DNA of 39,061 nt from an uncultured Streptosporangiaceae bacterium (GCA_964250865.1 CAXUJF010000006.1:1-39061), one strand, 5' to 3'. Numbered from the stretch's first letter, positions 599 through 34,660 are shown. A program made the numbers and translations. The notes: generated from the sequence alone by a model not told the origin.

Positions 599-660
599 CG
601 CGCGGAGGCTCGGGGATTTGAACCCCGGATGGGCGGTAAACCCAAACCGCATTAGCAGTG
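599..660. repeat. attL: 62-bp direct repeat, equal to the 3' 58 nt of tRNA-Ser(GCU) plus 4 nt
   Basis: 62/62 identity with 34599..34660; mismatches at 598 and 661. Confidence 0.9.
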
Positions 661-777
661 TGATCCGAACCGTGCCGCGCTCTGCGGCGACCAATCGCGA
701 ACGCTCGTTTTCGCAGGTCAATCGTGCCGCGTTTGCTTGCAACAGCCAACGTTCGGCGCTTCCTTCCACGCCCGGCC

Positions 778-800
778 GTGCACGCGTTGTGCACGCGTGC
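778..800. repeat. Candidate arm-type integrase-binding site (P' arm), 23-mer GTGCACGCGTTGTGCACGCGTGC
   Basis: Identical 23-mer at 34514..34536. It contains two tandem GTGCACGCG 9-mers. It lies 117 bp inside attL. Confidence 0.5.
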
Positions 801-888
801 ACGGCTTTAGACGCAAGTCGGCCCGCCTCGGTGTTCTCAGCACCGTGACGGGCCTGGTCCCCCAACCGCGTAACCGGAAAGAGGATTG

Positions 889-1566
889 ATGAACAAGCTA
901 ACAGGCATCCCTCCCGTCATCCCGTCGTCCGCTCCGAACTGCCCCGAGCACCGTCTCGCCGAGTTCGCCCGCGAGCTGCACGCCCGAGGCGTGACCGCCG
1001 ACCAGGCCGAGGCGAACTGTGAGGCGTACGACGAGGCGGCCAAGCCCGCGCTTGTCGCCCTGCTGCGCCTGATTGAGCTGAGCGAGCGGCCCGTGACCAT
1101 CGGCGAGAACGTCGCCCACGTGCTCAGCTACCACGACGGCGGGTTCGCTATCGAGCACCTGCCCGAGCTGGTCACCATGGCGGCCGAGGCGTACGAGGTC
1201 AACCTGACCACGCGCGGCTGTGACTGCCGGAACGCCGGGGAACTGGCGGACGAGCTGATCGCCCTGATCCCGGCCGGCCAGCGGGCCGAGGTGCTTGAGC
1301 ACCTGATCGTTAACGAGCTCTACGACCACATCACGGCTGGTGCGCCGGATATGCCATGGGACGTCCCTAGCCGCGGAACCGCCGAGCTGATGGCCGCTCC
1401 GCTGATCGCCGCGCTCACCGCGCAGGACCGAGCCGATCGGGCGCTGCGGATGTACCTGTCCGGCGCCATCCGTGACGCGCTGGATTTCATGCTTGAGCAG
1501 CGCGCCGACCCGCTCATGTACGGCGAGCTGTTCAAGGCCGACGACGACCCGGAGAACGGCCAGTGA
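889..1566 (+). CDS. hypothetical protein (first gene of the coupled left-arm operon)
   Basis: ATG at 889 just after GGAAAGAGGA (TTG at 886 also possible). Coding-like high GC3. The C-terminal ~110 aa are paralogous to the next gene. Confidence 0.6.
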   Translation: MNKLTGIPPVIPSSAPNCPEHRLAEFARELHARGVTADQAEANCEAYDEAAKPALVALLRLIELSERPVTIGENVAHVLSYHDGGFAIEHLPELVTMAAEAYEVNLTTRGCDCRNAGELADELIALIPAGQRAEVLEHLIVNELYDHITAGAPDMPWDVPSRGTAELMAAPLIAALTAQDRADRALRMYLSGAIRDALDFMLEQRADPLMYGELFKADDDPENGQ

Positions 1567-1627
1567 GCGCGCTCATCACCGGCGCCTGCTTCGCCGTCCC
1601 TACCGTGGCCATCCTGGTAACGCGGCG

Positions 1628-2047
1628 GTGGCTGCCGTGAACGCGCCCGACGTCATCGGCACCTTGGGCGCGGCGATCGACCAAGCCGCCGCCGCCGTGA
1701 TCAACCTCGGCCACGCACGCCCGGCCGCCGCCGAGCTGGCCGACGCCATCCTCGCGCCGATGGGCGAGGACACCCGCGACATCGTGCTGCGGCACCTGGT
1801 CGCCGAGAAGCTGACCGAGCTGCTCAGCCTCACAGCCGACTGTGATGCCGATACGTTCCTGCTCGACTACGACCAGCCCAGCACTGGGCTCGCGGTGTCC
1901 GCCGCGGTCGGCCCGGTGCTGGACGCCATGAACGCGCAGGACCGTCAGGCGTCTGTCCTGCGCGAGCTGCTCATCGGCGAAATCCTCGCCACGCGGGACT
2001 ACCTGCGCGAGCAGCGCGAGGCCCTGAGCCTTCAGGACGCACGATGA
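1628..2047 (+). CDS. hypothetical protein, paralog of the C-terminal part of 889..1566
   Basis: GTG at 1628 (or 1637) within ORF 1472..2047. Alignable motifs ELAD..L..VL.HL and L.A..AQDR......L......D.L.EQR. The stop overlaps the next start (ATGA at 2044). Confidence 0.55.
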   Translation: MAAVNAPDVIGTLGAAIDQAAAAVINLGHARPAAAELADAILAPMGEDTRDIVLRHLVAEKLTELLSLTADCDADTFLLDYDQPSTGLAVSAAVGPVLDAMNAQDRQASVLRELLIGEILATRDYLREQREALSLQDAR

Positions 2048-2319
2048 GCGCCGCCGCGGTGACCGCCGGGCTGGTCGGCATCTCCGCTGACCACCTCGGC
2101 GCGGGGCTCACGAGCGCCCCGCGCCCCAAGGGTGGTCAGGGCTGGGCACACCCCGGCGAGCCGTGGGCCGACGCGGACGGCGGCACGCACGTCGCGCGCC
2201 TCGGCCGCGCGAACCGCCGCGGACTCATCAGCGGCCCCGACCTGGTGGCCGCTCTGCAGACCATCGGCGAGCCGTTCACCTCGGCGACTGCCGTGCCATG
2301 GCCGGGGGGTGCCCGATGA
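2044..2319 (+). CDS. hypothetical protein
   Basis: 91-aa ORF with ATGA overlaps to both neighbours. Confidence 0.5.
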   Translation: MSAAAVTAGLVGISADHLGAGLTSAPRPKGGQGWAHPGEPWADADGGTHVARLGRANRRGLISGPDLVAALQTIGEPFTSATAVPWPGGAR

Positions 2320-2690
2320 AGTGGCCGACTGTGCAGGCGAACCGCCGGGGGAACGTCGCCGAGCGTGTCCTTGACCGCTGGCTGAAGTGGCGTTCGATGG
2401 GCCGGGAGTATCCCGACGTGCTCGGCCGGTCGTGGAACGTCCAGGTGCGCCGCATCGATCGCGAGGCCGAGGCAATGCAGCGCACCGCCGGATTCCACTG
2501 CGAGGCGTGGTTCTTCCGCCGCCCGGACACACACATCGCCCTGTTTGACTTCCGGCGCCTGTTCGGCGACGGCCAGGTGCTCGGCGGCGAGACGTTCTTT
2601 TGCGCCAAGCACGCCGCGCGGTACGCACAGCACCGCGGCGTCGCCATCCTGCTGCCCGACAGCGACCCGAAGGGACATGCAGCCCCGTGA
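2316..2690 (+). CDS. hypothetical protein
   Basis: Internal ATG at 2316 of ORF 2163..2690 overlaps the upstream stop (ATGA). 124 aa. Confidence 0.6.
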   Translation: MKWPTVQANRRGNVAERVLDRWLKWRSMGREYPDVLGRSWNVQVRRIDREAEAMQRTAGFHCEAWFFRRPDTHIALFDFRRLFGDGQVLGGETFFCAKHAARYAQHRGVAILLPDSDPKGHAAP

Positions 2691-3976
2691 CCACGACCAC
2701 CGTGCCCGACTGGCGCGAGAACAGGCGGCAGGACCGCCTCGCGGACGCAAGGATCGCCCGTGAGCGCGACGAGGCCCGCGCACAGGCCAGCCTTGCGCAG
2801 CAGCGCCTCAACGCTGAGCTGCGGGGCGAGGCCGAGGCGCAGCGCCGCGCCGAGCATGTCGCCGCCAAACTGGCGCGCGGCGAACGCTGGGCAGCGCGCC
2901 GGGCATGGGTGGCCGCGCACCTGGCCGACCTCGTTTTTGCGCCCGTGATCGTCATTCCCGGCGTGCTCGCCTGGTCGGCCATGGGCGCGTTCGGAGAGCA
3001 GCTGTTCGGCGTCGTCGGCCTCGGCCTGCCCGCCGTCAGCGAAGGCGCCATGTGGGTGTTTGAGATGCGGAACGCCTACGTGAGCCAGCACTACCCGGAC
3101 AGGCCGGTTTGGCACCTGCGCCTCGGTGCCTGGGTGTTCACGGCGGTTGGCGCCGCGCTCAACTTCCTGCACGGCCTGACCGCCATCCCCGGCAGCGACC
3201 GCCCGCACGGCGTCACGGTCGGCCTGGTCATGGCGCTCATCTCGGCCGCGGGCATGGTCGCGCACCAGCTCGTCAAGACTGGCCCCAAGCGCACCCGTGC
3301 GCAGCGTGCCGCCGCCCGCCGCGAGGACCGTGCCCGCCGCGCTGCGATCCGCTCGGCGCCGGTCGACCTGGACGACGACGGCACCGCCCACGTCATGCTC
3401 GAGCCGGTCACCGTCCAGCTCGGCCGCAAGCGCGGCCGGACAGTCTTGACCGTGCTGGACGAGGCCGAGCCGGTGGCCCCGGCAGACACGGCTGACCGGA
3501 GCGACGACGTGGACGAAATCGGACGCCAGGTGGCCGAGCAGCTCGCGCTCGCGCTAGCCAACACTGACCGCATAGCCGCGATCCTGCGCCCGTACCGGGA
3601 CACCGCCGAGCAGCAAAGCGCCGCGCGTGGCGACACTGCCTCAGCCATTCCCGACGAGCCACGGCCGGACGCTGAAAACGCCAGCGAGCCCGAGATCAAG
3701 CCCGAGACCGAAGCCGACCCCGCACCGGACATCGAGCAGGAGCTAGACACGGCCACCGTGCCCAACCCGCGCCGACCGGCCAGCAGGCGGCCGAGTGGCC
3801 ACCGCCGGACTCGCAAGCTGACCACGGCCGAGGTGCGGCGGCGGATCGCCGCCGCCGAGCCGGGGACAAGCAACGCCGACCTGGCCAAGGCAACCGGCCG
3901 GTCAGAGCGCACCGTCCGCCGCCTGCGGAACGAGGCCACGCCGGAACTGGCCACCGCAGGCCGGGAAGGGGGTTGA
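2687..3976 (+). CDS. DUF2637-like membrane protein with C-terminal HTH (Spd-like)
   Basis: GTG at 2687 overlaps the upstream stop (GTGA). N-terminal charged coiled coil, four hydrophobic helices (VFAPVIVIPGVLAW, FGVVGLGLPAV, LGAWVFTAVGAALNFL, VGLVMALISAAGMVA), C-terminal HTH ADLAKATGRSERTVRRL. Confidence 0.7.
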   Translation: MTTTTVPDWRENRRQDRLADARIARERDEARAQASLAQQRLNAELRGEAEAQRRAEHVAAKLARGERWAARRAWVAAHLADLVFAPVIVIPGVLAWSAMGAFGEQLFGVVGLGLPAVSEGAMWVFEMRNAYVSQHYPDRPVWHLRLGAWVFTAVGAALNFLHGLTAIPGSDRPHGVTVGLVMALISAAGMVAHQLVKTGPKRTRAQRAAARREDRARRAAIRSAPVDLDDDGTAHVMLEPVTVQLGRKRGRTVLTVLDEAEPVAPADTADRSDDVDEIGRQVAEQLALALANTDRIAAILRPYRDTAEQQSAARGDTASAIPDEPRPDAENASEPEIKPETEADPAPDIEQELDTATVPNPRRPASRRPSGHRRTRKLTTAEVRRRIAAAEPGTSNADLAKATGRSERTVRRLRNEATPELATAGREGG

Positions 3977-4123
3977 CCAGACGTTGACTAGGCGGTCGCT
4001 ACTGGCCGCTAGCGCTCGGATACGTGCGAGCGTGTGAAGTGAAGTAACAGGGCGCCCCCGGGCGCGGTGACTCAACCACCGGCCCGGGGACTTGACCGAA
4101 GACCCCAAGGAGGTCAACGGACC

Positions 4124-4279
4124 ATGAGTGAAGTTATCAGCGCGACCCCGGCTCGCCCGGTGCACTGGCTGACGCCTGCCGAGTGTGCCCGGCTGTCCGC
4201 TCAGCTGGAAGCACTGGGCGAGCGCATCGGGCGGCTTGAGGACCAGCGGACGGCCGGGCTTGCGGGCGGTGCCCGGTGA
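4124..4279 (+). CDS. small hypothetical protein (51 aa)
   Basis: ATG at 4124 preceded by AAGGAGG at 8-nt spacing. The stop overlaps the next start. Confidence 0.6.
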   Translation: MSEVISATPARPVHWLTPAECARLSAQLEALGERIGRLEDQRTAGLAGGAR

Positions 4280-4869
4280 CCGCCCTGGACGAGCGGCCCG
4301 CGACCGCCACCCCCGACGACCCGCACGCCTACGACCCGACGTCTTCGGGCATCCCGCACCCGGCAACGCCCGGCGCGGACATCACGGCCGAGGACATCAC
4401 CGACCAATTCCGTGCCTTCACTCACCTGTTCATCGACCGGCTGTTCGACCACGTGGCCACCCAAGACCTCGGCCACGGTGCCGGGTCCGGTGTGCTGGCC
4501 TTCCTGACCGGCGACGACACGACGTTCACCGGATACCGCCGCAACCTCGCCGCCATGATGGCCGGATGGGGCGATCAGCTCTATGAGGCTGACGGCCCGG
4601 CGTGCGACGGACGCAACTGCACGACCCCGCGATGCCTCTGCCACAACCAGCCTGATCTCTGCCAGCCGTTCCCTGTCGCGCCCGAGCTGCGGCGCATCTT
4701 CGATGAGATCCGCCGCCGTGGCATCTGGCGGCAGCTGGTCGTGGAAGGCGTCGGCGAGTTCGAGCCGCGTTACTTCAACGTCCTGACCGGCGCAGTGCAG
4801 GACTACGAGCCGCGCGACTACAAGGACGAGCCCGACAACGAGCTGACCGTGAACGGTGGTGCGCGATGA
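4276..4869 (+). CDS. hypothetical protein (Cys-rich centre CDGRNCTTPRCLCHNQPDLC)
   Basis: 197-aa ORF with GTGA/ATGA coupling on both sides. Confidence 0.65.
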   Translation: MTALDERPATATPDDPHAYDPTSSGIPHPATPGADITAEDITDQFRAFTHLFIDRLFDHVATQDLGHGAGSGVLAFLTGDDTTFTGYRRNLAAMMAGWGDQLYEADGPACDGRNCTTPRCLCHNQPDLCQPFPVAPELRRIFDEIRRRGIWRQLVVEGVGEFEPRYFNVLTGAVQDYEPRDYKDEPDNELTVNGGAR

Positions 4870-5228
4870 CGGCGCCGACCGTTGCCAAGCCGGACAGCTG
4901 GGTCATGGAAGACGCCGCGTTTGCCGACGCCGACCGCAGGACCGCCCGGCGCAAGGCCCAGTGGGACTACCTGGACGATCTGACCGACAGCATGTCGGTC
5001 GTGCGCGAGGCGCGCCCCAACCCGTTCCATCAGGATCACTGGGGCTACAACGTGGCCGGGGACGTCCTGGCCTACCTCTGCCGCCAGCACAAGGAAGTCG
5101 CCGCCGAGATCCTGGCCTACCTGGAGATGACCGCCGACCAGATCGACAACACCGCCGACGAGTTCGGCACCGGCCTTATGGATGACATCACCGAGATTAT
5201 GCGCAAGCGCGAGGGCGGTGCCCAGTGA
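4866..5228 (+). CDS. hypothetical protein
   Basis: 120-aa ORF with coupled overlaps at 4866 and 5225. Confidence 0.65.
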   Translation: MTAPTVAKPDSWVMEDAAFADADRRTARRKAQWDYLDDLTDSMSVVREARPNPFHQDHWGYNVAGDVLAYLCRQHKEVAAEILAYLEMTADQIDNTADEFGTGLMDDITEIMRKREGGAQ

Positions 5229-5896
5229 CCGCCGTTGAGGAACGTCCGGTCATCGTGGCCACACAGGACGAGGCCATCGCCGACTATCACCGCACCAGCA
5301 TCCGCAAGCTTGAGGTCATCATTGACCAGAAGTTGGCCGCGCTGCGGCATCACGTGACCGAGCTCGAACGGTGGGACGCCGAATCGTTCGCCGCCGCCCT
5401 GCGGCTGCTGATGACCGGCCTCATGGCCAAAGTGCCCGGCGGCGATGCGACCGGCACTCAAGCGGCAGCGAGCCTCGTCGAGCACTTCGCCGACAGCGAC
5501 GATCCGCGGCGGCTCGGCGCGGACGTGGCGCGGTTCTTCGCGAGTGCCAAGCTGCCCGACTGCGCCGACGAGAGCGAGGACTGCGGCGCGTGCGCCGACT
5601 GCGATTTCTGGCTCATCCGCAGCCGGTACGACGACCCGCAAGGCGATGACGTGCAGGCGATTCTTGCTCAGCTGGCGGCCAACCGGCGGCGGCTGTACGA
5701 CGCAGGCGTTCCGCGCCCCGAGTGGGTCACGTTCCCGCGCGAGCTGATCGCCCAGGACGAGGCCCGCGCGACCGAGCTGCAGCGCGAAATCCTTGAGCGC
5801 GAAACCGAGCTGGGGCGACTCGCCGCACGTTGGCCCGCGCCGCACGCGAGGCTCTACGCCACGGGCGGCAAGGGCGGTCAGGCGGCGGCCAAATGA
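5225..5896 (+). CDS. hypothetical protein (CxxCxxC motif, C-terminal coiled coil)
   Basis: 223-aa ORF with a GTGA overlap upstream and an ATGA overlap downstream. Confidence 0.65.
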   Translation: MTAVEERPVIVATQDEAIADYHRTSIRKLEVIIDQKLAALRHHVTELERWDAESFAAALRLLMTGLMAKVPGGDATGTQAAASLVEHFADSDDPRRLGADVARFFASAKLPDCADESEDCGACADCDFWLIRSRYDDPQGDDVQAILAQLAANRRRLYDAGVPRPEWVTFPRELIAQDEARATELQREILERETELGRLAARWPAPHARLYATGGKGGQAAAK

Positions 5897-6066
5897 CCAC
5901 CGACGCGGCGGCCAACCGTCCGGCCAAAAGGGAGCCGATGACCGCTCAGCAGGCTTGCGAAATCCTGGCCAAACTCGCGGTCATGACGGCGGACATTCTT
6001 GACTTGGATGACCGCCTTGAGCGCCTCACAATCCGGCACCGTGACCACGCGGCCGAGGCGACCTAA
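5893..6066 (+). CDS. small hypothetical protein (57 aa)
   Basis: ATG at 5893 overlaps the upstream stop (ATGA). Last gene before a 270-bp non-coding gap. Confidence 0.5.
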   Translation: MTTDAAANRPAKREPMTAQQACEILAKLAVMTADILDLDDRLERLTIRHRDHAAEAT

Positions 6067-6342
6067 TGACCCCGGATTTGGCCGCCGTTCTGCTGGCCGT
6101 GGCGACCCCCCACGCGATCGGCCGAGGGGGTTGCGCGTGACCCTCTCAACCGGCTGCCGTCCGGGGGTGCGTGTGGGCACCCGGACGGGGGCCTGTGTGG
6201 GCCGCCAGACAACCCCCCACATGGGCACCCCTTCCGGCCTACCACTCCCCCACTCGCGCCGAGAGGGCCTGAGCGGGGGGGGCTACGCATCCAGGGATAC
6301 CCGTATACGTGCGCGTGAGGATTCCGAGAGGGGCTGTTGATC

Positions 6343-6660
6343 ATGCCGCCATGGGGTGAGCCGAAGCCGCGCGATCCGGCCAAGGCCAGGGCGAAGCGTC
6401 TCAAGGCCAAGCGCAACGAAGCGGACGAGCAGCTGTTCAATCAGCACAACCCGCGCGAGGCGTTCAACATCGCCACGCGTGCGCTGCAGGCCGAGGCTTC
6501 CGCCGCGCACCGCAGCAACGAGCTCGCCGGGCACCGGAGCTATGCCTACTTGATGGCCGCGCTGTTCGACATGGCCGAGAGCGTGGCGAAGGGCTGGCGG
6601 CCGACCGACGCCGACCTCAAGAGCGTCGGGCTGAACGTCCAGCGCACGGCCGAGGCATAG
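6343..6660 (+). CDS. hypothetical basic protein
   Basis: ATG at 6343, 9 nt after GAGAGGGG. 105 aa with a Lys/Arg-rich N-terminus. Confidence 0.6.
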   Translation: MPPWGEPKPRDPAKARAKRLKAKRNEADEQLFNQHNPREAFNIATRALQAEASAAHRSNELAGHRSYAYLMAALFDMAESVAKGWRPTDADLKSVGLNVQRTAEA

Positions 6661-6720
6661 CCATGGTCAAACGATCACCGTGCGTGACGCGCTGTGCGTC
6701 CGGCATGTCTACCGGCCCGT

Positions 6721-6858
6721 TCACTGGCACTCCAGATTCCACGGGCACCGTCACTGGCAGGTTCACCGGCATCCCAAGCTTCACGGGCAGCGCCAGCGGC
6801 ACGATCACCAGCACTCCAGATTCCACCCGCACGTTTACCGGCAGGTTCACCAGCACTC
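6721..6858. repeat. Iteron-like repeat field (84-bp period plus TCACNGGCA-type 9-mers)
   Basis: GCACTCCAGATTCCAC at 6727 and 6811. GGCAGGTTCACC at 6756 and 6840. At least 7 TCAC(C/T/G)(G/A)GCA-like boxes. Five of six reading frames are open. Confidence 0.6.
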
Positions 6859-6960
6859 AATTTTTCGCCTCACGCGCACACACACGCCTACGCGTAGAGG
6901 GGCCCGGCAGGTGTCCGCGGCGAATCTGGACACCTGCGCACGACACACGGAGAGTCACCA

Positions 6961-7215
6961 ATGAGTAATCCCGTCAAGATCCGCGAGAACCGCCTGCACA
7001 AGATGGCCGACCGCCAGGGCGTGTGGCTGGTCAAGCCACTGCGGCGCGACCCGCACGGCGCCGAGTTCGGCCGGTACTACATCGCCGTGCAGGACTTCCG
7101 GCGTCCGCCGGTCGCCGGGAAGGTCGACGGCATGGCCCGGATGACGCTGGACGACGTTGAGGCATGGCTGACCGCCGACCCGGCGACCCGCGACGACACA
7201 AGGCGGGCAGCGTGA
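6961..7215 (+). CDS. hypothetical protein
   Basis: 84-aa ORF. ATG preceded by GGAGAG. The stop overlaps the next start. Confidence 0.55.
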   Translation: MSNPVKIRENRLHKMADRQGVWLVKPLRRDPHGAEFGRYYIAVQDFRRPPVAGKVDGMARMTLDDVEAWLTADPATRDDTRRAA

Positions 7216-9011: not shown

Positions 9012-9014
9012 TCG

Positions 9015-28432: not shown

Positions 28433-28712
28433 TTGCGGGGTTTAGCTTTTTTATTGCGGGGTTTAGATCGGTGAAAATTCCTAAACCCCGTAGGATCTCG
28501 ACTCTCTGACCTGCGGTTACGGGGTTTGCGGTGTTTACGGGGTTTAATTTCCACGCGCGCACACGGGACGATGCCCTTAGTAGCGCTGGGCCCAAAACAA
28601 ACCCCGCAAACCCCGTAAACACCGCAGCGGTACCCCTGACCTGCGGAAACATGGGTGCGGGGTTTAGAAAAGCCGCAAACTCTAAACCCCGCAGACGCTC
28701 TAAACCCCGCAG
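28433..28712. repeat. Iteron field: ten (G)CGGGGTTTA(G) / CTAAACCCCG(C) boxes; candidate replication origin
   Basis: Forward copies at 28433, 28454, 28517, 28535, 28655. Inverted copies at 28481, 28598, 28607, 28682, 28700. CTGACCTGCGG at 28506 and 28636. Non-coding, directly 3' of the helicase gene. Confidence 0.7.
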
Positions 28713-28715
28713 CGG

Positions 28716-30323
28716 TCACTCGGTGGCCTCGTCCACGCGCCACGTGTTGACCTTGGTCCGCTTGTCCTGCTCGCAGCGCAGCACGAACGATCCGCGCCAG
28801 CGGCCGATCTGCCCGGCGAGGATCTTGCCCGCCGACCTCGCGGGCGACTGCATTGCCTTGCTGCGTGGGAGGTTGAACGTCCCTTCCCACGGATCGAGGC
28901 CGCCGGGCGGCACGTCGGCCGAGGCGCACAGCTCAGCCGCGGTGAGCCACCGTTCGCCGTGGATCGTGCGCCACTGGGCGAAGAACGCCGTCCACTGGGA
29001 CTCTTCATCGTCGATGTTCCGCACGGTGTCGACGTTGGCGAGGAACCCGCCGATGCCGTGGTGAGCGAGGAACCCGCCGACCGCCTCGGCCCACGGCGTG
29101 AACTGCCGCATGGTGAGGCCCTGGTGCCGGGGTGCCCCGTTGCGTGTCCAGTCGGCGACCAGGACGAGCAGGTGCCACAGAACGTCCCGCTGGTTGTCCG
29201 GGGCGAGGATCCACTGATCGAGGTGGGGGATCTCGAATCCGGTACGGTCTTCCGGCCGCGGGGTGTCGGGGTTGAGGCCGACCAGGACCGCACGTGTCCG
29301 CATGTCGCCACCGAGCCGCAGGTTATTGCCCGTTGCCGTCCATACGCGGTCATTGGCGAACGACGCCGTTGAGTTTTTCCCGAGCAGCCGGTCGGCCCAC
29401 GTCCGGTCAGTGATCAGCCGTGCGAGCACGGGTGAGTCAATGGCGGTTCCCTCGGCGAGGTTGTCGAAGATGATCGTGCCGACCGGATCGGCGAGAACCG
29501 ACGTGATCGCCTTGCGGAGTTCCTCGTCCGAGTTCGTCCACGTGAGCACGCGCTGCCCGTAGAGCATCCCGAGGCCGCAGGTCAGGATCGTTTTTCCTGA
29601 GCTGGGCATGGTCGACGTGACGACGCCGAACGGGATGAGCGTGCGCAGATAGGACCGCAGGACGGGGGTTACCAGCAGCGCGAGGTAATTCGCCTTGTCC
29701 GCGTCGCCGACCCATGGGAAGTCACCCAGGAAACGGTGCAGGAGAAACTCGCGCGCGGCCCGTACCTGCATCGCGCTCGGCTCGGCCGGGACCGGCTTGA
29801 GCGGCACCTTGCTGGCCAGATACAGGCCGGTCGCCCGGTCGTACCCGGCCGTCTGCAGCAGCGACCCGTCAGGCCGCAGGACCGGGGCCCCGACGATGCC
29901 GTAGAGCGGCTGCAGGTCCGGCCACTCTTTCGGCGCGAGCGCGGCGGCGAGCACACTCGGCGGCGGCGTCACTTCCTCCCGGTCAGCCTTCGGCCGGCCC
30001 TTGTCGTCCTTCCGCATGACGGTCTTGTAGGTGAACGTGTTCGCGGCCAGGAGGGCGGCCAGCTCAGGCGCGCGTATCTCGCTGGCCGTGACCGGAAGCG
30101 GCGAGTCTTCATCGCCCGACGCGGCACCCGGCGTTCCCGATACGCGCTCCACGTGGACGACCTGACCGGCACTGACGTAGGTACCGGGGATCGTGCCCGC
30201 GTCGATCGCGTCGCGCAGCGCCCGAATGGTGACCGGGCCCGTGCCCGTCTCAATCGGCGGCTTATCCCCGCCGGGGCTGACGGAGTGCAGAACGAGAGCG
30301 CTCGTCCCGTCAATGTCGCTCAC
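28716..30323 (-). CDS. SF3-type P-loop helicase (phage/plasmid primase-associated)
   Basis: 535 aa. Walker A TSTMPSSGKT, Walker B-like GTIIFDN, motif C-like VWTATGNN. GTGA-coupled to the Prim-Pol gene. Confidence 0.75.
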   Translation of the reverse strand: MSDIDGTSALVLHSVSPGGDKPPIETGTGPVTIRALRDAIDAGTIPGTYVSAGQVVHVERVSGTPGAASGDEDSPLPVTASEIRAPELAALLAANTFTYKTVMRKDDKGRPKADREEVTPPPSVLAAALAPKEWPDLQPLYGIVGAPVLRPDGSLLQTAGYDRATGLYLASKVPLKPVPAEPSAMQVRAAREFLLHRFLGDFPWVGDADKANYLALLVTPVLRSYLRTLIPFGVVTSTMPSSGKTILTCGLGMLYGQRVLTWTNSDEELRKAITSVLADPVGTIIFDNLAEGTAIDSPVLARLITDRTWADRLLGKNSTASFANDRVWTATGNNLRLGGDMRTRAVLVGLNPDTPRPEDRTGFEIPHLDQWILAPDNQRDVLWHLLVLVADWTRNGAPRHQGLTMRQFTPWAEAVGGFLAHHGIGGFLANVDTVRNIDDEESQWTAFFAQWRTIHGERWLTAAELCASADVPPGGLDPWEGTFNLPRSKAMQSPARSAGKILAGQIGRWRGSFVLRCEQDKRTKVNTWRVDEATE

Positions 30324-31210
30324 GCGGCCCCCTGACGGGGCGTGCTGGCGCCCGCGCGGAATCCCGATGCGATCGTGCGCCGTGTCTCGCCCGGCCGCTG
30401 GCCGACCTGCTGCGCCGCTGCCGCGAGCGCCTCGGCTGCGGTGTCCTCGTCCAGGGCCCCGGCCGCGACGACGCTGCCGACCTTGAGCGCCGCCGTGAAC
30501 AGCGCGTCATTGTGCTGGCCGTCCGGGGAGTCGAGCACCCGTTGCACTTCACCGCGCAGCACTGCCTCGGCGTAGCGGTTCGCGCGGCCAAGGTCGGGCA
30601 GCTGGGCGACGTTGTTCCGTGCCGGGCGTTCCGGCTCACGCAGGCGTTCCGTCCAGACATCAGGCAGCGGCGTAAGTGCCCGGCGCCAGTCGGCACGCCA
30701 CTCGTAAGGCTCACCCGTCCGGGGATGCCGTGAGGGCGCGACCACGATGTAACCGCCGTCTGCCTTGACGTCGACCCCGATGCCGCCTTTACGGGCGCCT
30801 GACGGGATCCGCACGCCGGGGTGCGAGTAGATCAGGTGATATCCGCCGCCGCCGGTTCGCTGGGCCAGCGTCCGGGGCAGCTCGCCCGCTTCCATCGCCG
30901 CCCGCATGGTCGGCAGGCCGTGCGGCGCGTCCACGTCGATTACCACCGTGCCCGAGGCGGCCCCGGTGCGGACGGCGAGCAGGCCGCGCGGGTAGCGGCG
31001 GATCATCTCGGCCGCCCGGTCGGCGTCCAGCGTGGCCGCATAGAGCGCGTGACAAGACAGGCACGTGCAGGCTTCCATTTGCTCGGCGGTCGTGTGCTGC
31101 TCGCGGCACGGATCGCACAGCGCCACGGGCACCTTGCTCGCGGAGAGCACGAACACGGGCCAGCCCCGGCCGATGTACGCTCGCGCGGCGGCGAGCTGGT
31201 CGGCCGTCAC
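30320..31210 (-). CDS. Bifunctional DNA primase/polymerase (Prim-Pol domain)
   Basis: YIGRGWPVFVL, VVIDVDAPHG, TGGGGYHLIY and VDVKADGGYIVVAPS are the AEP Prim-Pol motifs. GTGA overlaps on both sides. Confidence 0.85.
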   Translation of the reverse strand: MTADQLAAARAYIGRGWPVFVLSASKVPVALCDPCREQHTTAEQMEACTCLSCHALYAATLDADRAAEMIRRYPRGLLAVRTGAASGTVVIDVDAPHGLPTMRAAMEAGELPRTLAQRTGGGGYHLIYSHPGVRIPSGARKGGIGVDVKADGGYIVVAPSRHPRTGEPYEWRADWRRALTPLPDVWTERLREPERPARNNVAQLPDLGRANRYAEAVLRGEVQRVLDSPDGQHNDALFTAALKVGSVVAAGALDEDTAAEALAAAAQQVGQRPGETRRTIASGFRAGASTPRQGAA

Positions 31211-31584
31211 GCCGCTGCCTCATTGCCGCCGGTCCGGCCATACGTGCGAGCGATGGCGATAGTCACGCGGTGACCGCACGGCAGGCGCCTCGGCCCGGTC
31301 ACGTCGGCCAGCTCGCGGGCCCGGCCGAGGTGTGGATTCCGGCAGTGCGGGCAGGTGGCGAGGTACCACCAGCACCGACGCCGGCCGGACGGCACGAGCA
31401 GGGACACGCGCGCGGTGAGCGGCGGTTCCGCTGCTGCGCTGCGCCGCCGCTGTCGCGCGGTCGCTAGGCGATTGTCAGCCCCGGCGGTTATGCTGGTCGC
31501 CTGGGATGCAGTTGCGGTGACGTTCTGGTTTGGGCCGGTCTCGAGGTGGCGACCTCGGGGCCGGTCACTGCTTTCAGGGGACAT
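31207..31584 (-). CDS. small zinc-finger-like protein upstream of Prim-Pol
   Basis: 125-aa ORF. CPHCRNPH....PCGH motif. Coupled (GTGA) to Prim-Pol. Confidence 0.55.
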   Translation of the reverse strand: MSPESSDRPRGRHLETGPNQNVTATASQATSITAGADNRLATARQRRRSAAAEPPLTARVSLLVPSGRRRCWWYLATCPHCRNPHLGRARELADVTGPRRLPCGHRVTIAIARTYGRTGGNEAAA

Positions 31585-31752: not shown

Positions 31753-32004
31753 TTACGCGCTCAGTGCCTCGGCGGCTTCGGGCCGCCCGGTGGCGAGTTC
31801 CTCGTCCACGCCCAGCGCCCGGAAGATGCTTGAGCGGGACACGCGGTACTTAATTCCTACAAAAAGCACCTCGCACGGGAACTTGCCAGCCCTTGCGAGC
31901 TCGAACGCCTTGGTGCGCCCGAGGCCGAACGTCCGGCCGGCAGTCACAAGGTCGACGCTCACGGGCAGCGCGAGCAGCTCGGCGCGGCTCATTTCTTTGA
32001 TCAT
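31753..32004 (-). CDS. xis: Excisionase-family HTH protein (MerR-like HTH_17)
   Basis: 83 aa. LVTAGRTFGLGRTKAFELARAGKFPCEVLFVGIKYRVSRSSI fits the excisionase/AlpA-like pattern. RBS GGAGACGGAG. Confidence 0.7.
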   Translation of the reverse strand: MIKEMSRAELLALPVSVDLVTAGRTFGLGRTKAFELARAGKFPCEVLFVGIKYRVSRSSIFRALGVDEELATGRPEAAEALSA

Positions 32005-32029
32005 GGCTCCGTCTCCAGATCGAAACTAA

Positions 32030-32145
32030 GGCGATTGCATAGTTTTGCATCTGCTCTGCGATCTGCACACGCTCAGAATGCCCGGGACGTGCCAAGAATG
32101 CAAGCGACTCGCACAGTCGCGCGCCAAAGTCTGGCGATTGCATAG
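32030..32145. promoter_or_regulatory. Divergent switch region with repeated GGCGATTGCATAG / TTGCAT boxes
   Basis: GGCGATTGCATAG at 32030 and 32133. TTGCAT at 32045 and inverted ATGCAA at 32098. Hairpin GCGACT-CGCAC-AGTCGC at 32104-20. Confidence 0.55.
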
Positions 32146-32167
32146 AACCGTGCCTTACAGTCGGCAC

Positions 32168-32842
32168 GTGGACGCGGACGAGGAACAAGAGACGAACGGG
32201 GACGGCGACGGCCAAGACCGGCCCCACCAGCACGTGACCGTCAATCAGATCGTGGCCGACAACATGGCGTATTGGCGTAAGGTCGCCGGCCTGACACAGG
32301 AGCAGCTCGGCGAGCGTCTTGGGTGGAGCAACGTCGTCGTATCTGCGGCTGAGCGATCGGCGCACAGCAACCGGCCGCGGTCGTTCACGGTTGATGACCT
32401 TGTGAATCTCGCCATCGCGCTCGGCGTTCCGCTGGCTGCCCTTTTTCTGCCGCCCACTGACGACGGCATGCCTGCCGACTTCATGTTCTCGACCGGCATG
32501 GGGGATGGAAACATGGGCGGTCTGCTGCTGCTGGTCCTAGCGGACGACGGCAGCGATAGCGATGTCATGGACGCTTACCGCAGGCGCCTCGGCGTGGCGG
32601 TTAACGGCTACCTCGACCGGGGCTTGGCCGAGCAGATCGCCAAGATGCTGCGCGACCCGACCAGCGCCGAGATGAACGCCGACCGGATCGCACGGCTCCG
32701 CTTGCACCAAGCCGAGCTTGAGTCGACGTTCACGGCGGCCAACACCGCCGCCCTGACCGCTGCTGCTCAGTTTGGCGAGATAGCCGACGTCCTTGAGAAG
32801 TGGGACGCGGAACACGGCGACGACCAGGAGGTGACCGAATGA
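32168..32842 (+). CDS. XRE-family HTH regulator upstream of int
   Basis: GTG at 32168 within ORF 32045..32842. IVADNMAYWRKVAGLTQEQLGERLGWSNVVVSAAERS is an HTH. The stop overlaps the int start (ATGA). Confidence 0.7.
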   Translation: MDADEEQETNGDGDGQDRPHQHVTVNQIVADNMAYWRKVAGLTQEQLGERLGWSNVVVSAAERSAHSNRPRSFTVDDLVNLAIALGVPLAALFLPPTDDGMPADFMFSTGMGDGNMGGLLLLVLADDGSDSDVMDAYRRRLGVAVNGYLDRGLAEQIAKMLRDPTSAEMNADRIARLRLHQAELESTFTAANTAALTAAAQFGEIADVLEKWDAEHGDDQEVTE

Positions 32843-34287
32843 GGGGATCGGTCTTCCCGCTGTGCTTCTGCCGCGACCCCCAGACGGGCAAGGCGCTCGG
32901 CAAGAAGTGTCCCAAGTTCGGCAAGAAGGGGCACGGTAAGTGGTACTTCCGGTACAGCGCGCCAGCGGGCGCAGACGGCAAGCGCCGTCAGCCGAGGATC
33001 GGGCCGTTCGACACGAAGACGGTGGCTGAGGAGGAGCTGACCGCGGCGCTCGCACGGATCGCGGGCGGAGGCCAGGTGCACGACCGCTCGCTTCTGGTCG
33101 GTGCCTACCTGACCGCGTACGCGGCCGGGAAGCTGGACGTTAAGGCAAGCACGCTCGCGTCGATCCATGAGGCTGTCCGGCTGTACTGGATTCCGGCGCT
33201 CGGTCACCTGCGGCTCGTTGACCTGCGTGACCACCACGTCTCCGAGGCCGTGCGCGAGATGATGAAGATCAACCGGCCGCTACCGGAGGACGAGAAGCCG
33301 TCCGAGGTGCTCCGCCGGATGATCGCCGCCCGGGCCGACGATGTGCGCCGCGAGCTGCCGCCCGGCGAGAAGCGGCGCAAGAAATCGACCGTGCCGCTGT
33401 CACCGGCACGAATCGCGCTCATGTTCGCCGTTCTGCGTGCGGCACTCAACGACGCGGTGCCGGGCAAGATCGAGCACAACCCGTGTGCCACCGTCAAGCT
33501 GCCGAGGGTGGCCAAGGTCAAGCCGCTGCCCTGGACAGCGCCGCGCCTGGAGGGGTTCGGCAAGGCGCTCGCCAAACGGGTGTCGGCCGCCTTGGCAACC
33601 CGCGAGCTGACCATCGCCGAGCGCCAGGTGATATGGGGCGAGCCATCGCTACGACCGTCCCCGGTCATGGTCTGGATGCCCGCCCAGACCGGCGAGTTTC
33701 TCGACTTCATCGAGGGTGAGCGGCTGTTCGGACTGTTCTGCCTGGTCGCCTACTGCGGCTTGCGCCGGGACGAAGTGATCGGCCTCAAATGGGCCGAGGT
33801 CGACCTAGCCGAGGCAGTCGCATGGGTGCGCGAGACAGGGCACGGCGAGGGAACCAAGAGTGAGGCGGGGGTCCGTGCCGTGCCGCTCGCTGGGCCCGTG
33901 CTCGAGGCGCTCCGAGCATGGCGCAAGGTCCAGGCCGCCGACCAGCTCGCGTGGGGCCGTGACTGGGCAGACACCGACCTCGTGTTCACCCGCGAGGACG
34001 GTACGGCGGTACCGGGCCCGTGGGTGAGCACGAGGTTCGAGACACTCGCCTACCGGGCCGGCCTGCCGCCCGTCCGGTTCCACGACCTGCGGCACGGCGC
34101 CGCGAGCCTGGCCAAGGCCGCTGGGCTGGACTCCAAGTACATCGCCGCGCTTCTCGGCCACGCGCGCAGCTCGTTCACTGATGACGTGTACGTGCTGCTG
34201 TTCCCCGAGGTCGCCAACGCAGCTGCGGAAGCCGCCGCGGCGATTGTTCCTCGCCGGGGTATTGCTCAGAGCAGAGCAGATGTGTAG
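32839..34287 (+). CDS. int: Tyrosine integrase (pSAM2/phage-integrase family)
   Basis: 482 aa. CGLRRDEV (R), HDLRHGAAS (HxxR), LGHARSSFTDDVY (H..Y). Adjacent to the intact tRNA and attR. Confidence 0.9.
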   Translation: MRGSVFPLCFCRDPQTGKALGKKCPKFGKKGHGKWYFRYSAPAGADGKRRQPRIGPFDTKTVAEEELTAALARIAGGGQVHDRSLLVGAYLTAYAAGKLDVKASTLASIHEAVRLYWIPALGHLRLVDLRDHHVSEAVREMMKINRPLPEDEKPSEVLRRMIAARADDVRRELPPGEKRRKKSTVPLSPARIALMFAVLRAALNDAVPGKIEHNPCATVKLPRVAKVKPLPWTAPRLEGFGKALAKRVSAALATRELTIAERQVIWGEPSLRPSPVMVWMPAQTGEFLDFIEGERLFGLFCLVAYCGLRRDEVIGLKWAEVDLAEAVAWVRETGHGEGTKSEAGVRAVPLAGPVLEALRAWRKVQAADQLAWGRDWADTDLVFTREDGTAVPGPWVSTRFETLAYRAGLPPVRFHDLRHGAASLAKAAGLDSKYIAALLGHARSSFTDDVYVLLFPEVANAAAEAAAAIVPRRGIAQSRADV

Positions 34288-34297
34288 AGTGTTGAGC

Positions 34298-34498
34298 ATG
34301 GCACCGGACGAGCTGACACTGCGGCAAGCACGCGAGCTGCTTGCCACGTGGGCGGCCGACTTCCATGCCGTGCTTGCTCGGCGCGACTCCACGGTCCGTA
34401 CCGCCGTTGCGGCTGGCGTCAGCGTGTCCGAGGCACACCGCCTCACTGGACTCGCGCGGAACACAATCAGCAACATCGTGGCCGGTGAGGCATCATGA
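34298..34498 (+). CDS. small HTH protein next to int (possible directionality or regulatory factor)
   Basis: ATG at 34298 within ORF 34181..34498. C-terminal VSVSEAHRLTGLARNTISNIV is an HTH. Confidence 0.55.
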   Translation: MAPDELTLRQARELLATWAADFHAVLARRDSTVRTAVAAGVSVSEAHRLTGLARNTISNIVAGEAS

Positions 34499-34513
34499 CC
34501 GCCGCGCCGTCGT

Positions 34514-34536
34514 GTGCACGCGTTGTGCACGCGTGC
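34514..34536. repeat. Candidate arm-type integrase-binding site (P arm), identical to 778..800
   Basis: 23/23 identity. It lies 63 bp inside attR. Confidence 0.5.
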
Positions 34537-34550
34537 CCCGGAAATGGAAA

Positions 34551-34597
34551 GAGCAGCGGCCTCGGCCAAGATGTTCTCTCGGACGAAACCGCTGCTC
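34551..34597 (-). terminator. Element-borne hairpin plus U-tract replacing the tRNA terminator
   Basis: GAGCAGCGG (34551-59) pairs with CCGCTGCTC (34589-97). On the minus strand it is followed by TTTCCATTTCC. It lies immediately 3' of the tRNA. Confidence 0.4.
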
Positions 34598-34598
34598 A

Positions 34599-34660
34599 CG
34601 CGCGGAGGCTCGGGGATTTGAACCCCGGATGGGCGGTAAACCCAAACCGCATTAGCAGTG
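34599..34660. repeat. attR: 62-bp direct repeat inside the intact tRNA-Ser
   Basis: 62/62 identity with 599..660. Confidence 0.9.

Follow-up and report, generated by a model that had tools for sequence, protein, structure and literature searches.

The window, a stretch of 39,061 nucleotides from an uncultured Streptosporangiaceae bacterium, contains a 34-kb island at tRNA-Ser(GCU) that is best read as a mosaic, non-autonomous integrative element. Judged by its sequence, the backbone is clearly of the actinomycete AICE/plasmid type but is missing the FtsK-like TraB translocase, and it carries an 8-kb operon of translationally coupled, siphovirus-type genes. The island is best taken as a helper-dependent element, most likely a phage satellite or a phage-interfering element; more specifically we propose, tentatively and at a little less than an even chance, a non-autonomous mosaic whose operon parasitises the assembly of a co-resident siphovirus, as a satellite, by interference or both. 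A reading made from the sequence alone (the sequence-only reading) had described the island as neither a canonical prophage nor a canonical AICE, which agrees with the negative outcome of all searches for terminase, portal, capsid, tube and TraB. It had also preferred a satellite or a new class of integrative element to random decay; decay is indeed unlikely, but the island is a new combination of known modules, and the term new class is overstated.

Integration and replication modules

A perfect 62-bp direct repeat (599-660 and 34599-34660) bounds the island; on the tRNA it starts 4 nt 5' of the anticodon and ends 3 nt beyond the 3' end; the repeat and an alignment of the two copies both confirm the duplication from the anticodon loop to the 3' end that had been reported before. 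The integration target is the intact tRNA-Ser(GCU) gene on the minus strand (34602-34692; ARAGORN; Rfam RF00005, 53.7 bits), within which the repeat core forms attR (34599..34660). At attL (599..660) the core corresponds to the 3' part of tRNA-Ser, and the adjoining 5' half is not tRNA sequence in the copy alignment. This left copy, too, was called by ARAGORN (602-692); its 5' half is unrelated, however, and Rfam did not accept it, so that only the right copy passes. The island holds 53 called genes, a correction of the approximately 60 plausible ORFs first estimated, and is 86% coding, with no pseudogenes or phage-gene fragments detected in it.

The integration module (31753..34287) consists of an Xis-like gene on the minus strand, an HTH regulator and a tyrosine integrase. 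As had been noticed, the integrase (32839-34287, plus strand; Phage_integrase and Arm-DNA-bind_4 domains) lies beside the intact tRNA, at a distance of 315 nt. Its cluster has five members at ≥90% identity, one of which, 92% identical, is on a 43,453-bp ENA contig. The HTH regulator (32045-32842, plus strand) stands between the integrase and the divergent Xis-like gene (31753-32004); the divergent position of the latter is as first described, whereas its identity as Xis is putative and follows from size and position, because its PHROG match is weak and that family is of unknown function.

The replication module (28716..31584, minus strand) comprises a D5/SF3-like helicase (28716-30323; phrog_19930, E 8e-65), a Prim-Pol (30320-31210; E 9e-32) and a 125-aa ORF (31207-31584). 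The best fold matches of the helicase are the ASFV PrimPol-helicase and SCCmec Cch, the latter having been described as related to SaPI Rep. Next to the helicase gene lies an iteron field, a putative replication origin (28434..28711, both strands), with ten TGCGGGGTTTA-type sites where 0.75 would be expected by chance and none elsewhere in the island, confirming the earlier observation of Prim-Pol and an SF3-type helicase beside iterons. This iteron region is partly kept 3' of the helicase gene in L027. Thus, two of the features by which AICEs are recognised, a site-specific integration module at a tRNA or other att site and an autonomous replication module of the RepSA, RepAM or Prim-Pol type (here Prim-Pol, helicase and iterons), are both present.

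Terminase, portal, capsid, tail tube, lysis and TraB genes were not found

In Pfam and PHROG scans of 93 and 73 ORFs, no match to terminase, portal, capsid, tail tube or lysis genes was found, and an NCBIfam scan of ten key proteins yielded none of these classes either. Searches of the island by tblastn with all ORFs of related phages gave no capsid, tube or Dit remnants, and no ORF of at least 250 aa is left unaccounted for as a possible portal, terminase or capsid. The gene set of a temperate siphovirus prophage (terminase, portal, major capsid, tube and lysis) is therefore not there. AICEs are defined by the TraB translocase, and the FtsK/SpoIIIE-like Tra/TraB protein is missing as well: there was no Pfam FtsK_SpoIIIE match, and tblastn with four TraB/FtsK-like proteins revealed no remnant. 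Since no canonical Walker A motif occurs in the island in any frame, the SGKT loop of the helicase is the only P-loop. These absences, which hold at the level of the profile, motif and homology searches used, uphold both of the corresponding claims of the sequence-only reading.

The same searches bear on whether the island might be an ordinary temperate phage whose terminase, portal and capsid have diverged too far to be recognised by profiles, which we consider highly improbable. Although many of the ORFs match nothing in any library, the longest unannotated ones (leaving aside the tape measure protein (TMP), regulators and replication proteins) are only 429, 292 and 251 aa in length, the first two being membrane proteins and the third helical. 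No Walker A motif is available for a terminase, and the capsid, tube and Dit genes of related phages are easily detected elsewhere but absent here.

The backbone resembles the transfer region of AICEs and plasmids

The left arm (886..10586, plus strand) contains about 20 small ORFs, mostly ATGA/GTGA-coupled, and resembles the transfer/spread region of AICEs and plasmids; an HTH_31 regulator (7905-9011, plus strand) is among its genes, and Pfam and PHROG scans of the arm gave no structural-protein match. Compared with positions 4659-13737 of the closest relative, L023, the arm is 91% identical at the nucleotide level with the same gene order, ORF lengths are kept, and dN/dS is 0.08-0.4 in 11 of 15 ORFs and 0.41-0.67 in the other four, values which indicate that the arm is under purifying selection.

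One gene of the arm encodes a 429-aa membrane-anchored HTH protein (2687..3976, plus strand) with 57 homologues, whose family adjoins the TraB/FtsK translocase elsewhere. One homologue is located directly upstream of the annotated FtsK in the Amycolatopsis plasmid pXL100, and others lie about 3 kb or less from TraB-like ATPases in L025 and L037; because of these neighbours, we read the backbone as AICE-derived. In an AF2 model, for which the PDB has no significant match, the protein combines a long helix with TM helices and an HTH at the C-terminus. An hhalign comparison with a DUF2637 protein was negative.

A translationally coupled operon of siphovirus-derived genes

The phage-like operon runs on the minus strand from 21724 to 13894, and the junctions show ATGA/GTGA overlaps, as they do in the left arm, in agreement with the translational coupling first noted. 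Its first gene encodes an XRE-type HTH_3 regulator (21383..21724; HTH_3 E 1.2e-11; weak phrog_233 and phrog_8952 matches), the C-terminal tail of which, DLPEWAQDYIRQLRAEAAAHR, matches residues ~77-129 of the scaffold in L032 and L033. It is followed by a gp10-like Neck1/tail-completion protein (21039..21386; phrog_5, E 1.8e-7) that shares 78% aa identity with a gene from the connector region of the phage contigs L016, L019 and L032; its dN/dS against L019 is ~0.15, indicating that gp10, too, is under purifying selection.

The largest gene (16942..21042) encodes a 1366-aa TMP homologue with a C-terminal peptidoglycan-hydrolase-type insert at residues ~1180-1290. Residues 1-1151 are 39% identical to P0003, whose gene in siphophage contigs L010 and L011 has the chaperone genes on one side and Dit on the other; there are also transglycosylase PHROG matches and a match to NF052397 (E 5e-12). 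The protein is intact end to end, with its C-terminal end conserved across the family alignment. The peptidoglycan-hydrolase domain that is fused to TMP here stands alone upstream of TraB in the AICE L025.

Next in order is an HTH_17/excisionase-family DNA-binding protein (16426..16902; likely start at an internal Met near 16755; Pfam HTH_17 E 7e-5, TIGR01764 E 1.3e-4), for which a TerS match (phrog_57, E 0.007) is comparably weak to matches with RDF and excisionase PHROGs. The 145-aa product of 16020..16457 is a homologue of a head/connector-region protein (phrog_24894, E 5.5e-10; phrog_16194 'tail protein', E 9e-6), with 47% identity over its C-terminal 38-51 aa to a gene that L009, L032 and L033 carry a short distance downstream of their major head gene. 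A 251-aa helical protein (15283..16038), specific to modules of the island type, has no Pfam, PHROG or PDB match and no scaffold similarity, and is 40% identical over 245 aa to L017 854-1576, where a truncated scaffold gene follows as well.

The scaffold-derived protein itself (14591..15286, 231 aa) consists of the C-terminal half of a head scaffold and an extra 55-aa C-terminal domain. It matches the C-terminal halves of two profiles (phrog_8952, E 4e-20; phrog_15186, E 7e-18), aligns with the scaffold of L009, L032 and L033, whose gene precedes that of the major head protein, from residue 121/151 to the end, and matches the annotated scaffolding protein of Streptomyces phage Darolandstone; its 513 representative homologues are mostly 200-300 aa and match by their C-terminal half. 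The scaffold gene is split, with one part in the HTH_3 tail and the other in the 231-aa ORF, and the split may be a plain rearrangement scar. The operon ends with a basic K/A-rich protein (14304..14588, 94 aa), 42% identical to the product of an 85-aa gene preceding TMP in L013/L014 and similar by eye to a K/A-rich 92-aa ORF at the equivalent position of L017, and with a tail assembly chaperone homologue (13894..14307, 137 aa). In viral contig L034, the gene that immediately follows the one for the tail tube is 36% identical to the latter (E 1e-12), and the chaperone-position gene of phage L010 matches this L034 gene as well.

Overall, these matches indicate that the phage-type genes of the operon are genuinely homologous to structural genes belonging to one group of siphoviruses. 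The gp10-like, TMP and scaffold-like genes recognised at first sight stand, but they are not the only virion-type genes, as the chaperone (13894-14307) and head-region (16020-16457) homologues have to be added; likewise, a scaffold homologue is present, but the true one is 14591-15286 and covers the C-terminal half only. The gene order of the operon is not colinear with that of phages, so simple deletions cannot explain the arrangement.

Divergent from the operon is a short tyrosine recombinase gene that had been overlooked (22081-22740, plus strand, 219 aa; Phage_integrase E 4e-33). It has the catalytic domain only, matches Xer models in the C-terminal domain only, is similar in size to the 198-200-aa tyrosine-invertase models, and shows 49% identity to the recombinase beside the TMP module of L012.

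Relatives of the island and recurrence of the module

The island family is found in several metagenomes. L023 has the identical 62-mer and an attP-like junction in which the right end, the att core and the left end follow each other, and probably shares the integrase (P0364) in addition to the left arm. The matches listed for TMP and helicase include none from a 43,453-bp contig, which is the length of the L023 contig. As L023 is without a close TMP among those matches, the phage-like module looks accessory rather than the core transfer device of the family; the operon would then lie outside the conserved core, and the family would persist without it. The central modules vary among close relatives, and the module proteins are singletons with no relative at ≥90% identity.

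Parts of the module recur nevertheless. L017 has the set of truncated scaffold, 251-aa protein, basic protein and TMP at 37-40% aa identity, L013/L014 have a part of it, and TMP-plus-chaperone modules without a tube gene are present in at least four other loci (L008/L018, L012, L013/L014 and L017). Two island-type TMP modules are close to TraB-like genes, one in L008, which has an AICE-like gene set, and one in L014 (~9 kb). A large protein collection contains no more than 17 TMP homologues, which makes for a small sample of contexts.

As an alternative, which we regard as unlikely though plausible, the island may be a mobilisable AICE derivative that excises and replicates as in the favoured reading below. 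An AICE or plasmid in the same host would supply the FtsK-like TraB, which would recognise a clt-like site on the island and carry it from hypha to hypha, with the operon as anti-phage cargo and the island itself unpackaged. The scaffold, tape measure and neck proteins would then be dominant negative and poison the assembly of an infecting siphovirus, protecting the host. The left arm, a conserved relative of a transfer region that is short of TraB alone, fits this explanation, as do the TMP modules near TraB-like genes in L008 and L014, the stand-alone hydrolase domain upstream of TraB in L025, and L023 with its left arm and probably its integrase in common but no close TMP among the matches listed; Pettis and Cohen reportedly found in 1994 that pIJ101 Tra mobilises clt+ plasmids in trans. 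However, neither a clt-like repeat nor a co-resident TraB was seen, there was no PADLOC match, decoy structural proteins are no established type of stand-alone defence, and the intact retention of chaperone, neck protein and full-length TMP would be left unexplained.

We also weighed whether the island is an inert relic, an immobile patchwork left at a tRNA hotspot by repeated integration, deletion and recombination between AICEs and prophages, whose genes are intact only because these events are recent; this appears quite unlikely. There are signs of accretion, since the flank gene 67-483, left of att, is a paralogue of island gene 24387-24800, and in L023, fragments of recombinase and regulator genes mark a decayed related element to the left of att; the split scaffold gene, the dissimilar central modules of close relatives and the singleton status of the module proteins point the same way. 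Against this, the att repeats are perfect and the integrase intact, the island is 86% coding with no pseudogenes or phage-gene fragments detected, the left arm and gp10 are under purifying selection, the non-phage gene order comes with exact ATGA junctions, and the truncated-scaffold cassette is conserved across deep divergence in L017 and L013. Random decay in general is a poor fit for similar reasons: left-arm ORF lengths are kept with dN/dS of 0.08-0.4 in 11/15, the phage-like genes are full length and ATGA-coupled in an order unlike that of phages, the scaffold/251-aa/basic/TMP set is conserved in L017 and partly in L013, and at least four other loci have TMP modules without a tube gene.

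A proposed helper-dependent element compared with known systems

For the favoured reading of a helper-dependent element, we envisage that the att cores would recombine under the action of Int and Xis to release the island as a circle, which the helicase and Prim-Pol would copy from the iterons. Exit from the cell would require a helper; as the island has no machinery for leaving the cell, it is probably reliant on a helper phage or plasmid. The operon would exploit the way in which a siphovirus of the L009/L010/L032 type, resident in the same cell, assembles its particles. The truncated scaffold may act on helper procapsids, as SaPI CpmB does by mimicking the C-terminus of the helper scaffold, and the island's tape measure, chaperone and neck protein may be incorporated into helper tails, with packaging of the island (satellite behaviour), a lowered helper yield (interference) or both as the outcome. 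Several observations weigh against this reading: no helper phage, cos/pac site or small terminase was identified, the HTH_17 protein being ambiguous; 34 kb is two to three times the typical PICI size; L023 is without TMP or helicase among the matches listed, and the operon appears to be outside the conserved core; the module proteins are without relatives at ≥90% identity; the split scaffold may be a scar; with two TMP modules near TraB-like genes, the module may be cargo, for example for anti-phage interference; and the contexts of 17 TMP homologues are a small sample.

The island resembles AICEs of the pSAM2 type and pXL100 in its att site at a tRNA 3' end, which has genes for a tyrosine integrase and Xis beside it, in its Prim-Pol-type replicon and HTH regulators, in the small coupled ORFs that follow each other in long runs, and in a gene of the 429-aa family, whose members in pXL100, L025 and L037 neighbour TraB/FtsK; in contrast to them, it has phage morphogenesis genes and no FtsK/SpoIIIE-like TraB. 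The Nudix (Pif)/GntR (KorSA) pair of AICEs was not found in it by Pfam.

With PICIs and SaPIs the island shares the layout of int, regulator, xis, primase, helicase and iteron-ori, the absence of capsid, portal and large terminase genes and of a capsid, tail and lysis gene set, and a helicase fold close to SCCmec Cch; its homologue of the scaffold C-half is a candidate capsid-remodelling protein that may be analogous to CpmB. However, at 34 kb it is larger than PICIs, whose ~8-18 kb are fitted to small capsids, and neither a small terminase nor Ppi/Rpp is recognisable in it. Unlike PICIs, it has genes for a full tape measure, a chaperone and a neck protein, and ~10 kb of it are plasmid-like transfer-region genes. 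P4-like satellites likewise combine an integrase with a primase/helicase replicon and have no structural gene set of their own, but differ in host phylum, size and content, and no sid, psu or delta homologues were found in the island by Pfam and PHROG. The cfPICIs are satellite-type elements with some virion genes, including head-tail connector proteins, yet they have capsid, portal, protease and packaging genes of their own and depend on others for tails only; the island has no capsid, portal, protease or terminase, and instead bears a tail-side TMP and chaperone.

The source lineage of the five phage-type genes is represented by siphovirus contigs L009/L010/L016/L019/L032, which are from uncultured actinophages, and by Streptomyces phages Darolandstone and Raleigh (78% aa identity for gp10, 39% for TMP and ~32% for the scaffold C-half; the head-region protein and the chaperone also have counterparts). 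These contigs carry full structural operons in canonical order (major head, adaptor, tube, two chaperone genes, Dit and tail tip), whereas the island has five genes only, in a different order.

Much work has been devoted to the phage satellites of Firmicutes and Proteobacteria; to our knowledge, integrated ones have hardly been described in actinomycetes, and we know of no satellite that carries its own tape measure. If functional, the island would connect the two main gene-transfer routes of actinomycetes, conjugation and phage particles, and would be the first parasitic element known to us that supplies its own tape measure protein. That it represents the first integrated phage-satellite lineage in Actinomycetota, an AICE chassis hijacking siphovirus assembly at both ends, is a doubtful proposition at about one chance in four; if true, the TraB-bearing relatives L008 and L014 would have two routes of spread, conjugation and phage particles. 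Should the module serve defence alone, the carriage of decoy assembly proteins by plasmid-like elements would be an unlisted type of anti-phage function.

Variable region, regulators and small proteins

Four small secreted/membrane proteins (10767..12795, minus strand) are moron-like, with weak PHROG matches to superinfection-exclusion families and phrog_8241, and PADLOC gave no solid match for this cluster. The variable region (22822..25485) has a mixed content: a DUF6941 protein (22822-23238), two small ORFs, the paralogue of the flank gene (24387-24800), a small HTH gene (24811-25011), operator-like repeats (25021-25097) and a DUF6011 protein (25087-25485). The DUF6011 protein and an HTH regulator are common to the island and the AICE-like locus L008, the regulator (26489-27283, minus strand) being 47% identical to that of L008; this, too, speaks for AICE ancestry. 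Beyond it is the gene for a 292-aa membrane protein with 7-aa repeats (27381-28259, minus strand), which is 66% identical to its L023 homologue with a dN/dS of ~0.2.

Limits of the island and the genes absent from it

The island is bounded by a perfect 62-bp direct repeat (599-660 and 34599-34660), which runs, as the sequence-only reading had it, from 4 nt 5' of the anticodon to 3 nt beyond the tRNA end. ARAGORN called a tRNA-Ser(GCU) at both copies of the repeat; the 5' halves of the two calls are unrelated and only the right copy (34603-34692, minus strand) passed the Rfam tRNA model, indicating that the intact tRNA is the right-hand one. The island extends over approximately 661-34598, leftwards from the tRNA 3' end, with 53 genes called, 86% of it coding, and a G+C content of 66.9% compared to 70.9% in the right flank. 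ARAGORN took the degenerate copy at the left att (602-692, minus strand) for a full tRNA-Ser and Rfam rejected it; calls of this kind can inflate tRNA gene counts beside islands.

A Pfam scan of 93 candidate ORFs translated from both strands, a PHROG scan of 73 of them and NCBIfam searches with ten key proteins yielded no match to terminase, portal, capsid, protease, tail tube, Dit, holin, endolysin or FtsK/SpoIIIE. The motif [AG]xxxxGK[ST] was absent from the plausible ORFs in any frame, the sole P-loop being the SGKT loop of the helicase, and tblastn of four TraB/FtsK-like proteins from related elements against the window gave no match. When all ORFs of at least 60 aa from twelve related phage or viral loci were used as tblastn queries, just five genes of the phage-like operon (21724 to 13894) and a DUF6011 gene were matched in the window, with no fragments of capsid, tube or Dit genes; for 19 kb of the island, megablast gave no match among GenBank phages either. 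The longest ORFs other than the annotated proteins encode 429, 292 and 251 aa, and the first of these was modeled as a membrane-anchored HTH protein with no significant fold match in the PDB. The absence of terminase, portal, capsid, tail tube, lysis and TraB genes, which had been proposed from inspection, was thus borne out by the profile, motif and tblastn searches of the window. Since these genes are missing, the island is neither a complete prophage nor a conjugative AICE (actinomycete integrative and conjugative element): it lacks the FtsK-like translocase TraB that defines AICEs and the structural genes expected of a prophage, so that its earlier description as canonical for neither class holds. 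We conclude that the island is without its own means to transfer or package itself.

A TraB-less left arm under purifying selection

The left arm (886-10586, plus strand), a TraB-less transfer region of the AICE type, consists of approximately 20 small ORFs linked by ATGA/GTGA overlaps, with a family match for one HTH_31 regulator only. For the 429-aa protein there are 57 homologues; the few with a source name are from Streptosporangiaceae and Trebonia MAGs, a hint as to the group of the host. Its genomic context was inspected closely in Amycolatopsis plasmid pXL100 and in two other loci with enough flanking sequence, both AICE-like. In pXL100 the homologue directly precedes an annotated FtsK translocase. 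In L025, an element also carrying GntR, Nudix, WhiB and NlpC/P60 genes, it is approximately 3 kb upstream of a TraB-like ATPase, a Walker-A protein of 730 aa, and in L037 it is 2.7 kb from a TraB homologue. Assignment of the 429-aa protein to DUF2637 was rejected (hhalign probability 4%).

A close relative of the left arm, L023 (ENA ERZ25039595 contig_57466), was compared over its first 18 kb. Positions 4659-13737 of this contig share 91% nucleotide identity and the same gene order with window 587-9662, and TraB is absent there too. All 15 left-arm ORF pairs kept their lengths, with dN/dS of 0.08-0.4 in 11 of them and 0.41-0.67 in the other four, and the TraB-less left arm is therefore under purifying selection. 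The 292-aa membrane protein (27381-28259, minus strand) is 66% identical to its L023 homologue, with a dN/dS of approximately 0.2. Overall, we conclude that the parts of the island are under selection. Two of the genes kept in L023 contain internal repeats: ORF 6663-6968 (plus strand) has 3.7 copies of a 42-bp repeat (14 aa, Thr/Gly-rich) at 6702-6858, retained in L023, and the 292-aa gene has four 21-bp (7-aa) repeats at 27813-27917, which are coding and not iterons.

At 4572-4730 of L023, an island-type right end, an identical 62-bp att and a left arm stand in direct succession, the right-end copy before the att being 90.7% identical to window 34501-34598; such an attP-like junction is expected of a circular form or of a tandem array. 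The decayed relative to the left of this junction is without int, Prim-Pol and helicase and keeps fragments of a short recombinase, an HTH regulator and the 292-aa membrane protein. A 43,453-bp ENA contig, perhaps that of L023, encodes an integrase that shares 92% identity with that of the window, and no TMP (tape measure protein) or helicase from a contig of this length was among the matches listed. If the two contigs are the same, the left arm and integrase would be conserved and the centre and replicon variable. In the window itself, the left flank gene just outside attL (67-483, plus strand) is a paralogue, 78% identical in nucleotides, of island gene 24387-24800 (plus strand), and was probably left behind by an older related element integrated in tandem, which would place the true chromosomal flank beyond the left end of the window. 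An exact-sequence look-up matched the left flank gene to a 670-bp contig only and the TMP to nothing. The paralogous flank gene and the decayed relative in L023 point to repeated integration and decay at this tRNA-Ser. To the right of gene 24387-24800, an AT-rich pair of 33-bp direct repeats (25021-25097), each with a AACTTTGTT/AACAAAGTT palindrome, separates the DUF6011 gene from a small HTH gene (24811-25011) divergent to it and looks like an operator.

Integration and replication genes of the right arm

Searches with Pfam, PHROG and NCBIfam identified in the right arm a tyrosine integrase of 482 aa with an arm-binding domain (32839-34287, plus strand), an XRE-type HTH protein (32045-32842, plus strand), a 125-aa ORF, a Prim-Pol (30320-31210, minus strand; E 9e-32) and a protein of 535 aa, which is similar to phage primase/polymerase families in their C-terminal part (phrog_19930, E 8e-65). 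The divergent Xis-like gene (83 aa; 31753-32004, minus strand) showed just a weak PHROG match to a family of unknown function. The AlphaFold model of the 535-aa protein, built with 33 homologues as input (mean pLDDT 72.7), had as best fold matches the ASFV PrimPol-helicase, the SCCmec Cch helicase and PriRep1, with TM-scores that were low because these proteins are multi-domain; the model supports its reading as a putative D5/SF3-like replicative helicase. The sequence that adjoins the helicase gene on its 3' side has ten TGCGGGGTTTA-type sites, in both orientations, inside 28434-28711, compared to 0.75 expected from shuffles of the whole window, and part of this region is also conserved after the helicase gene in L027, a further small island. 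With 869 matches at E <= 1e-30, the helicase family is a large one and is found in small int-xis-rep islands; scans of viral contigs gave no match for the helicase, for the integrase or for the 251-aa protein. The island can very probably excise and replicate.

A rearranged operon of phage morphogenesis genes

The phage-like operon, encoded entirely on the minus strand with exact ATGA overlaps at four junctions, is headed by an HTH_3 (XRE-type) regulator (21383-21724). There follow a gp10-like Neck1/tail-completion protein (21039-21386; phrog_5), 78% identical in amino acids to a connector-region gene of three siphovirus-type contigs (L016, L019 and L032), and a TMP homologue of 1366 aa (16942-21042), which over residues 1-1151 shares 39% identity with P0003, a protein whose gene in siphovirus contigs L010/L011 is flanked by the chaperone genes and by Dit, and which has a C-terminal peptidoglycan-hydrolase-type insert. 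Downstream are an HTH_17/excisionase-family protein (16426-16902), a 145-aa protein (16020-16457; phrog_24894) with a homologue that follows the major head gene at a short distance in phage contigs L009, L032 and L033, and a 251-aa protein with no family match (15283-16038). The next gene encodes a scaffold-derived protein of 231 aa (14591-15286), which is similar to scaffold PHROGs in their C-terminal halves (E 4e-20 and 7e-18), aligns to residues 121/151 to the end of scaffold genes preceding the phrog_267 major head gene, and also matches the annotated scaffolding protein of Streptomyces phage Darolandstone. The operon ends with a basic protein of 94 aa (14304-14588) and a 137-aa protein (13894-14307), homologous to a gene directly after the tail tube gene in a viral contig (L034), the position of a tail assembly chaperone. 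PDB sequence searches with four module proteins gave no match, and PADLOC found no defence system. The hydrolase-type insert of the TMP (17170-17590; residues ~1180-1290) is 77-80% identical to IMG/VR contigs L003 and L004, and a related stand-alone domain is encoded in L025 (11948-12373) beside the NlpC/P60 gene and upstream of the TraB-like gene.

The order in the operon is gp10, TMP, head protein, scaffold C-terminus and chaperone, whereas in the phages the scaffold comes first, followed by major head, head protein, then gp10, then tube, chaperone and TMP; because of this difference, prophage deletions alone cannot yield the operon. The C-terminal tail of the HTH_3 regulator (residues 72-103, DLPEWAQDYIRQLRAEAAAHR) matches a scaffold motif just upstream of the alignment start of the 231-aa protein, and is either the scar of a rearrangement that split a scaffold gene or a functional fusion to a scaffold fragment. 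The island is a mosaic integrative element. The sequence-only reading preferred a satellite or a new class of element to random decay, and the selection on parts of the island together with a gene order beyond the reach of deletions speaks against such decay. A recent, inert mosaic is a less probable reading.

Tape measure modules in other loci and the role of the operon

The TMP family is rare: with its alignment as query, a set of 185,579 species genomes gave only 2 loci and the JGI metagenomes 7, and the family counts 17 proteins in 5.8 billion. In six loci (L009, L010/L011, L016, L019, L020 and L032) the TMP lies in canonical siphovirus operons with tube, chaperones and Dit. Whether the architecture is a one-off had been raised earlier; island-type loci without a tube gene recur in L008/L018, L012, L013/L014 and L017 besides the window. 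L017 contains an HTH gene, a homologue of the 251-aa protein (40% identity), a truncated scaffold (127 aa), the basic protein, TMP and Dit, and L013/L014 has in common with the window the basic protein and the additional domain at the C-terminus of the 231-aa protein. Upstream of the TMP, both L008 and L012 have an HTH_17 gene and four small ORFs, of which the last is weakly chaperone-like. Island-type and phage-type TMPs are intermixed by identity (L013, for example, is nearest to the phage-type L020, 51%), which suggests that TMPs may have been exchanged repeatedly between islands and phages.

Divergent from the TMP operon, recombinases of approximately 200 aa, of the Tyr or Ser type, are found in L012, L008 and the window. 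That of the window (22081-22740, plus strand) is a second tyrosine recombinase of 219 aa, with the catalytic domain only and of Xer C-terminal/invertase size, and the L012 protein is 49% identical to it; no convincing flanking inverted repeats, as an invertible promoter would have, were found around it. It may act in resolution or inversion. Since a fragment of this recombinase sits at the equivalent place in the L023 relic, it may be a backbone gene rather than the mark of a nested TMP-carrying element.

We favor a mechanism in which the operon would exploit a siphovirus of the L009/L010/L032 type, either like a satellite or by interference. The retained genes would each act at an assembly checkpoint (scaffold C-terminus, neck, chaperone and tape measure), and the cassette with the truncated scaffold has been conserved across deep divergence. 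In addition, the island has its integration and replication genes arranged as in PICI and P4-type satellites, and the scaffold C-half of the 231-aa protein parallels SaPI CpmB. Against this mechanism counts the 34-kb size, in which the island departs from PICI-type satellites, and no clear packaging determinant was found in the island. The module is also apparently accessory in its family and occurs close to TraB-like genes: in L008 it has replication/regulation genes on one side and, on the other, a TraB-like Walker-A protein of 701 aa with DUF6919 and DUF2637 genes alongside, and in L014 a TraB homologue is 9 kb downstream. The main rival is that the island derives from an AICE and is mobilised in trans by TraB, the operon being anti-phage cargo. 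To our knowledge, neither a satellite that encodes a tape measure protein of its own nor an AICE derivative that lacks TraB and carries a phage morphogenesis operon has been described. The AICE-like locus L008, with its island-type TMP module, also encodes a Lipoprotein_Ltp family protein (4471-5247); in Streptococcus thermophilus phages this family blocks incoming phage tape measure proteins.
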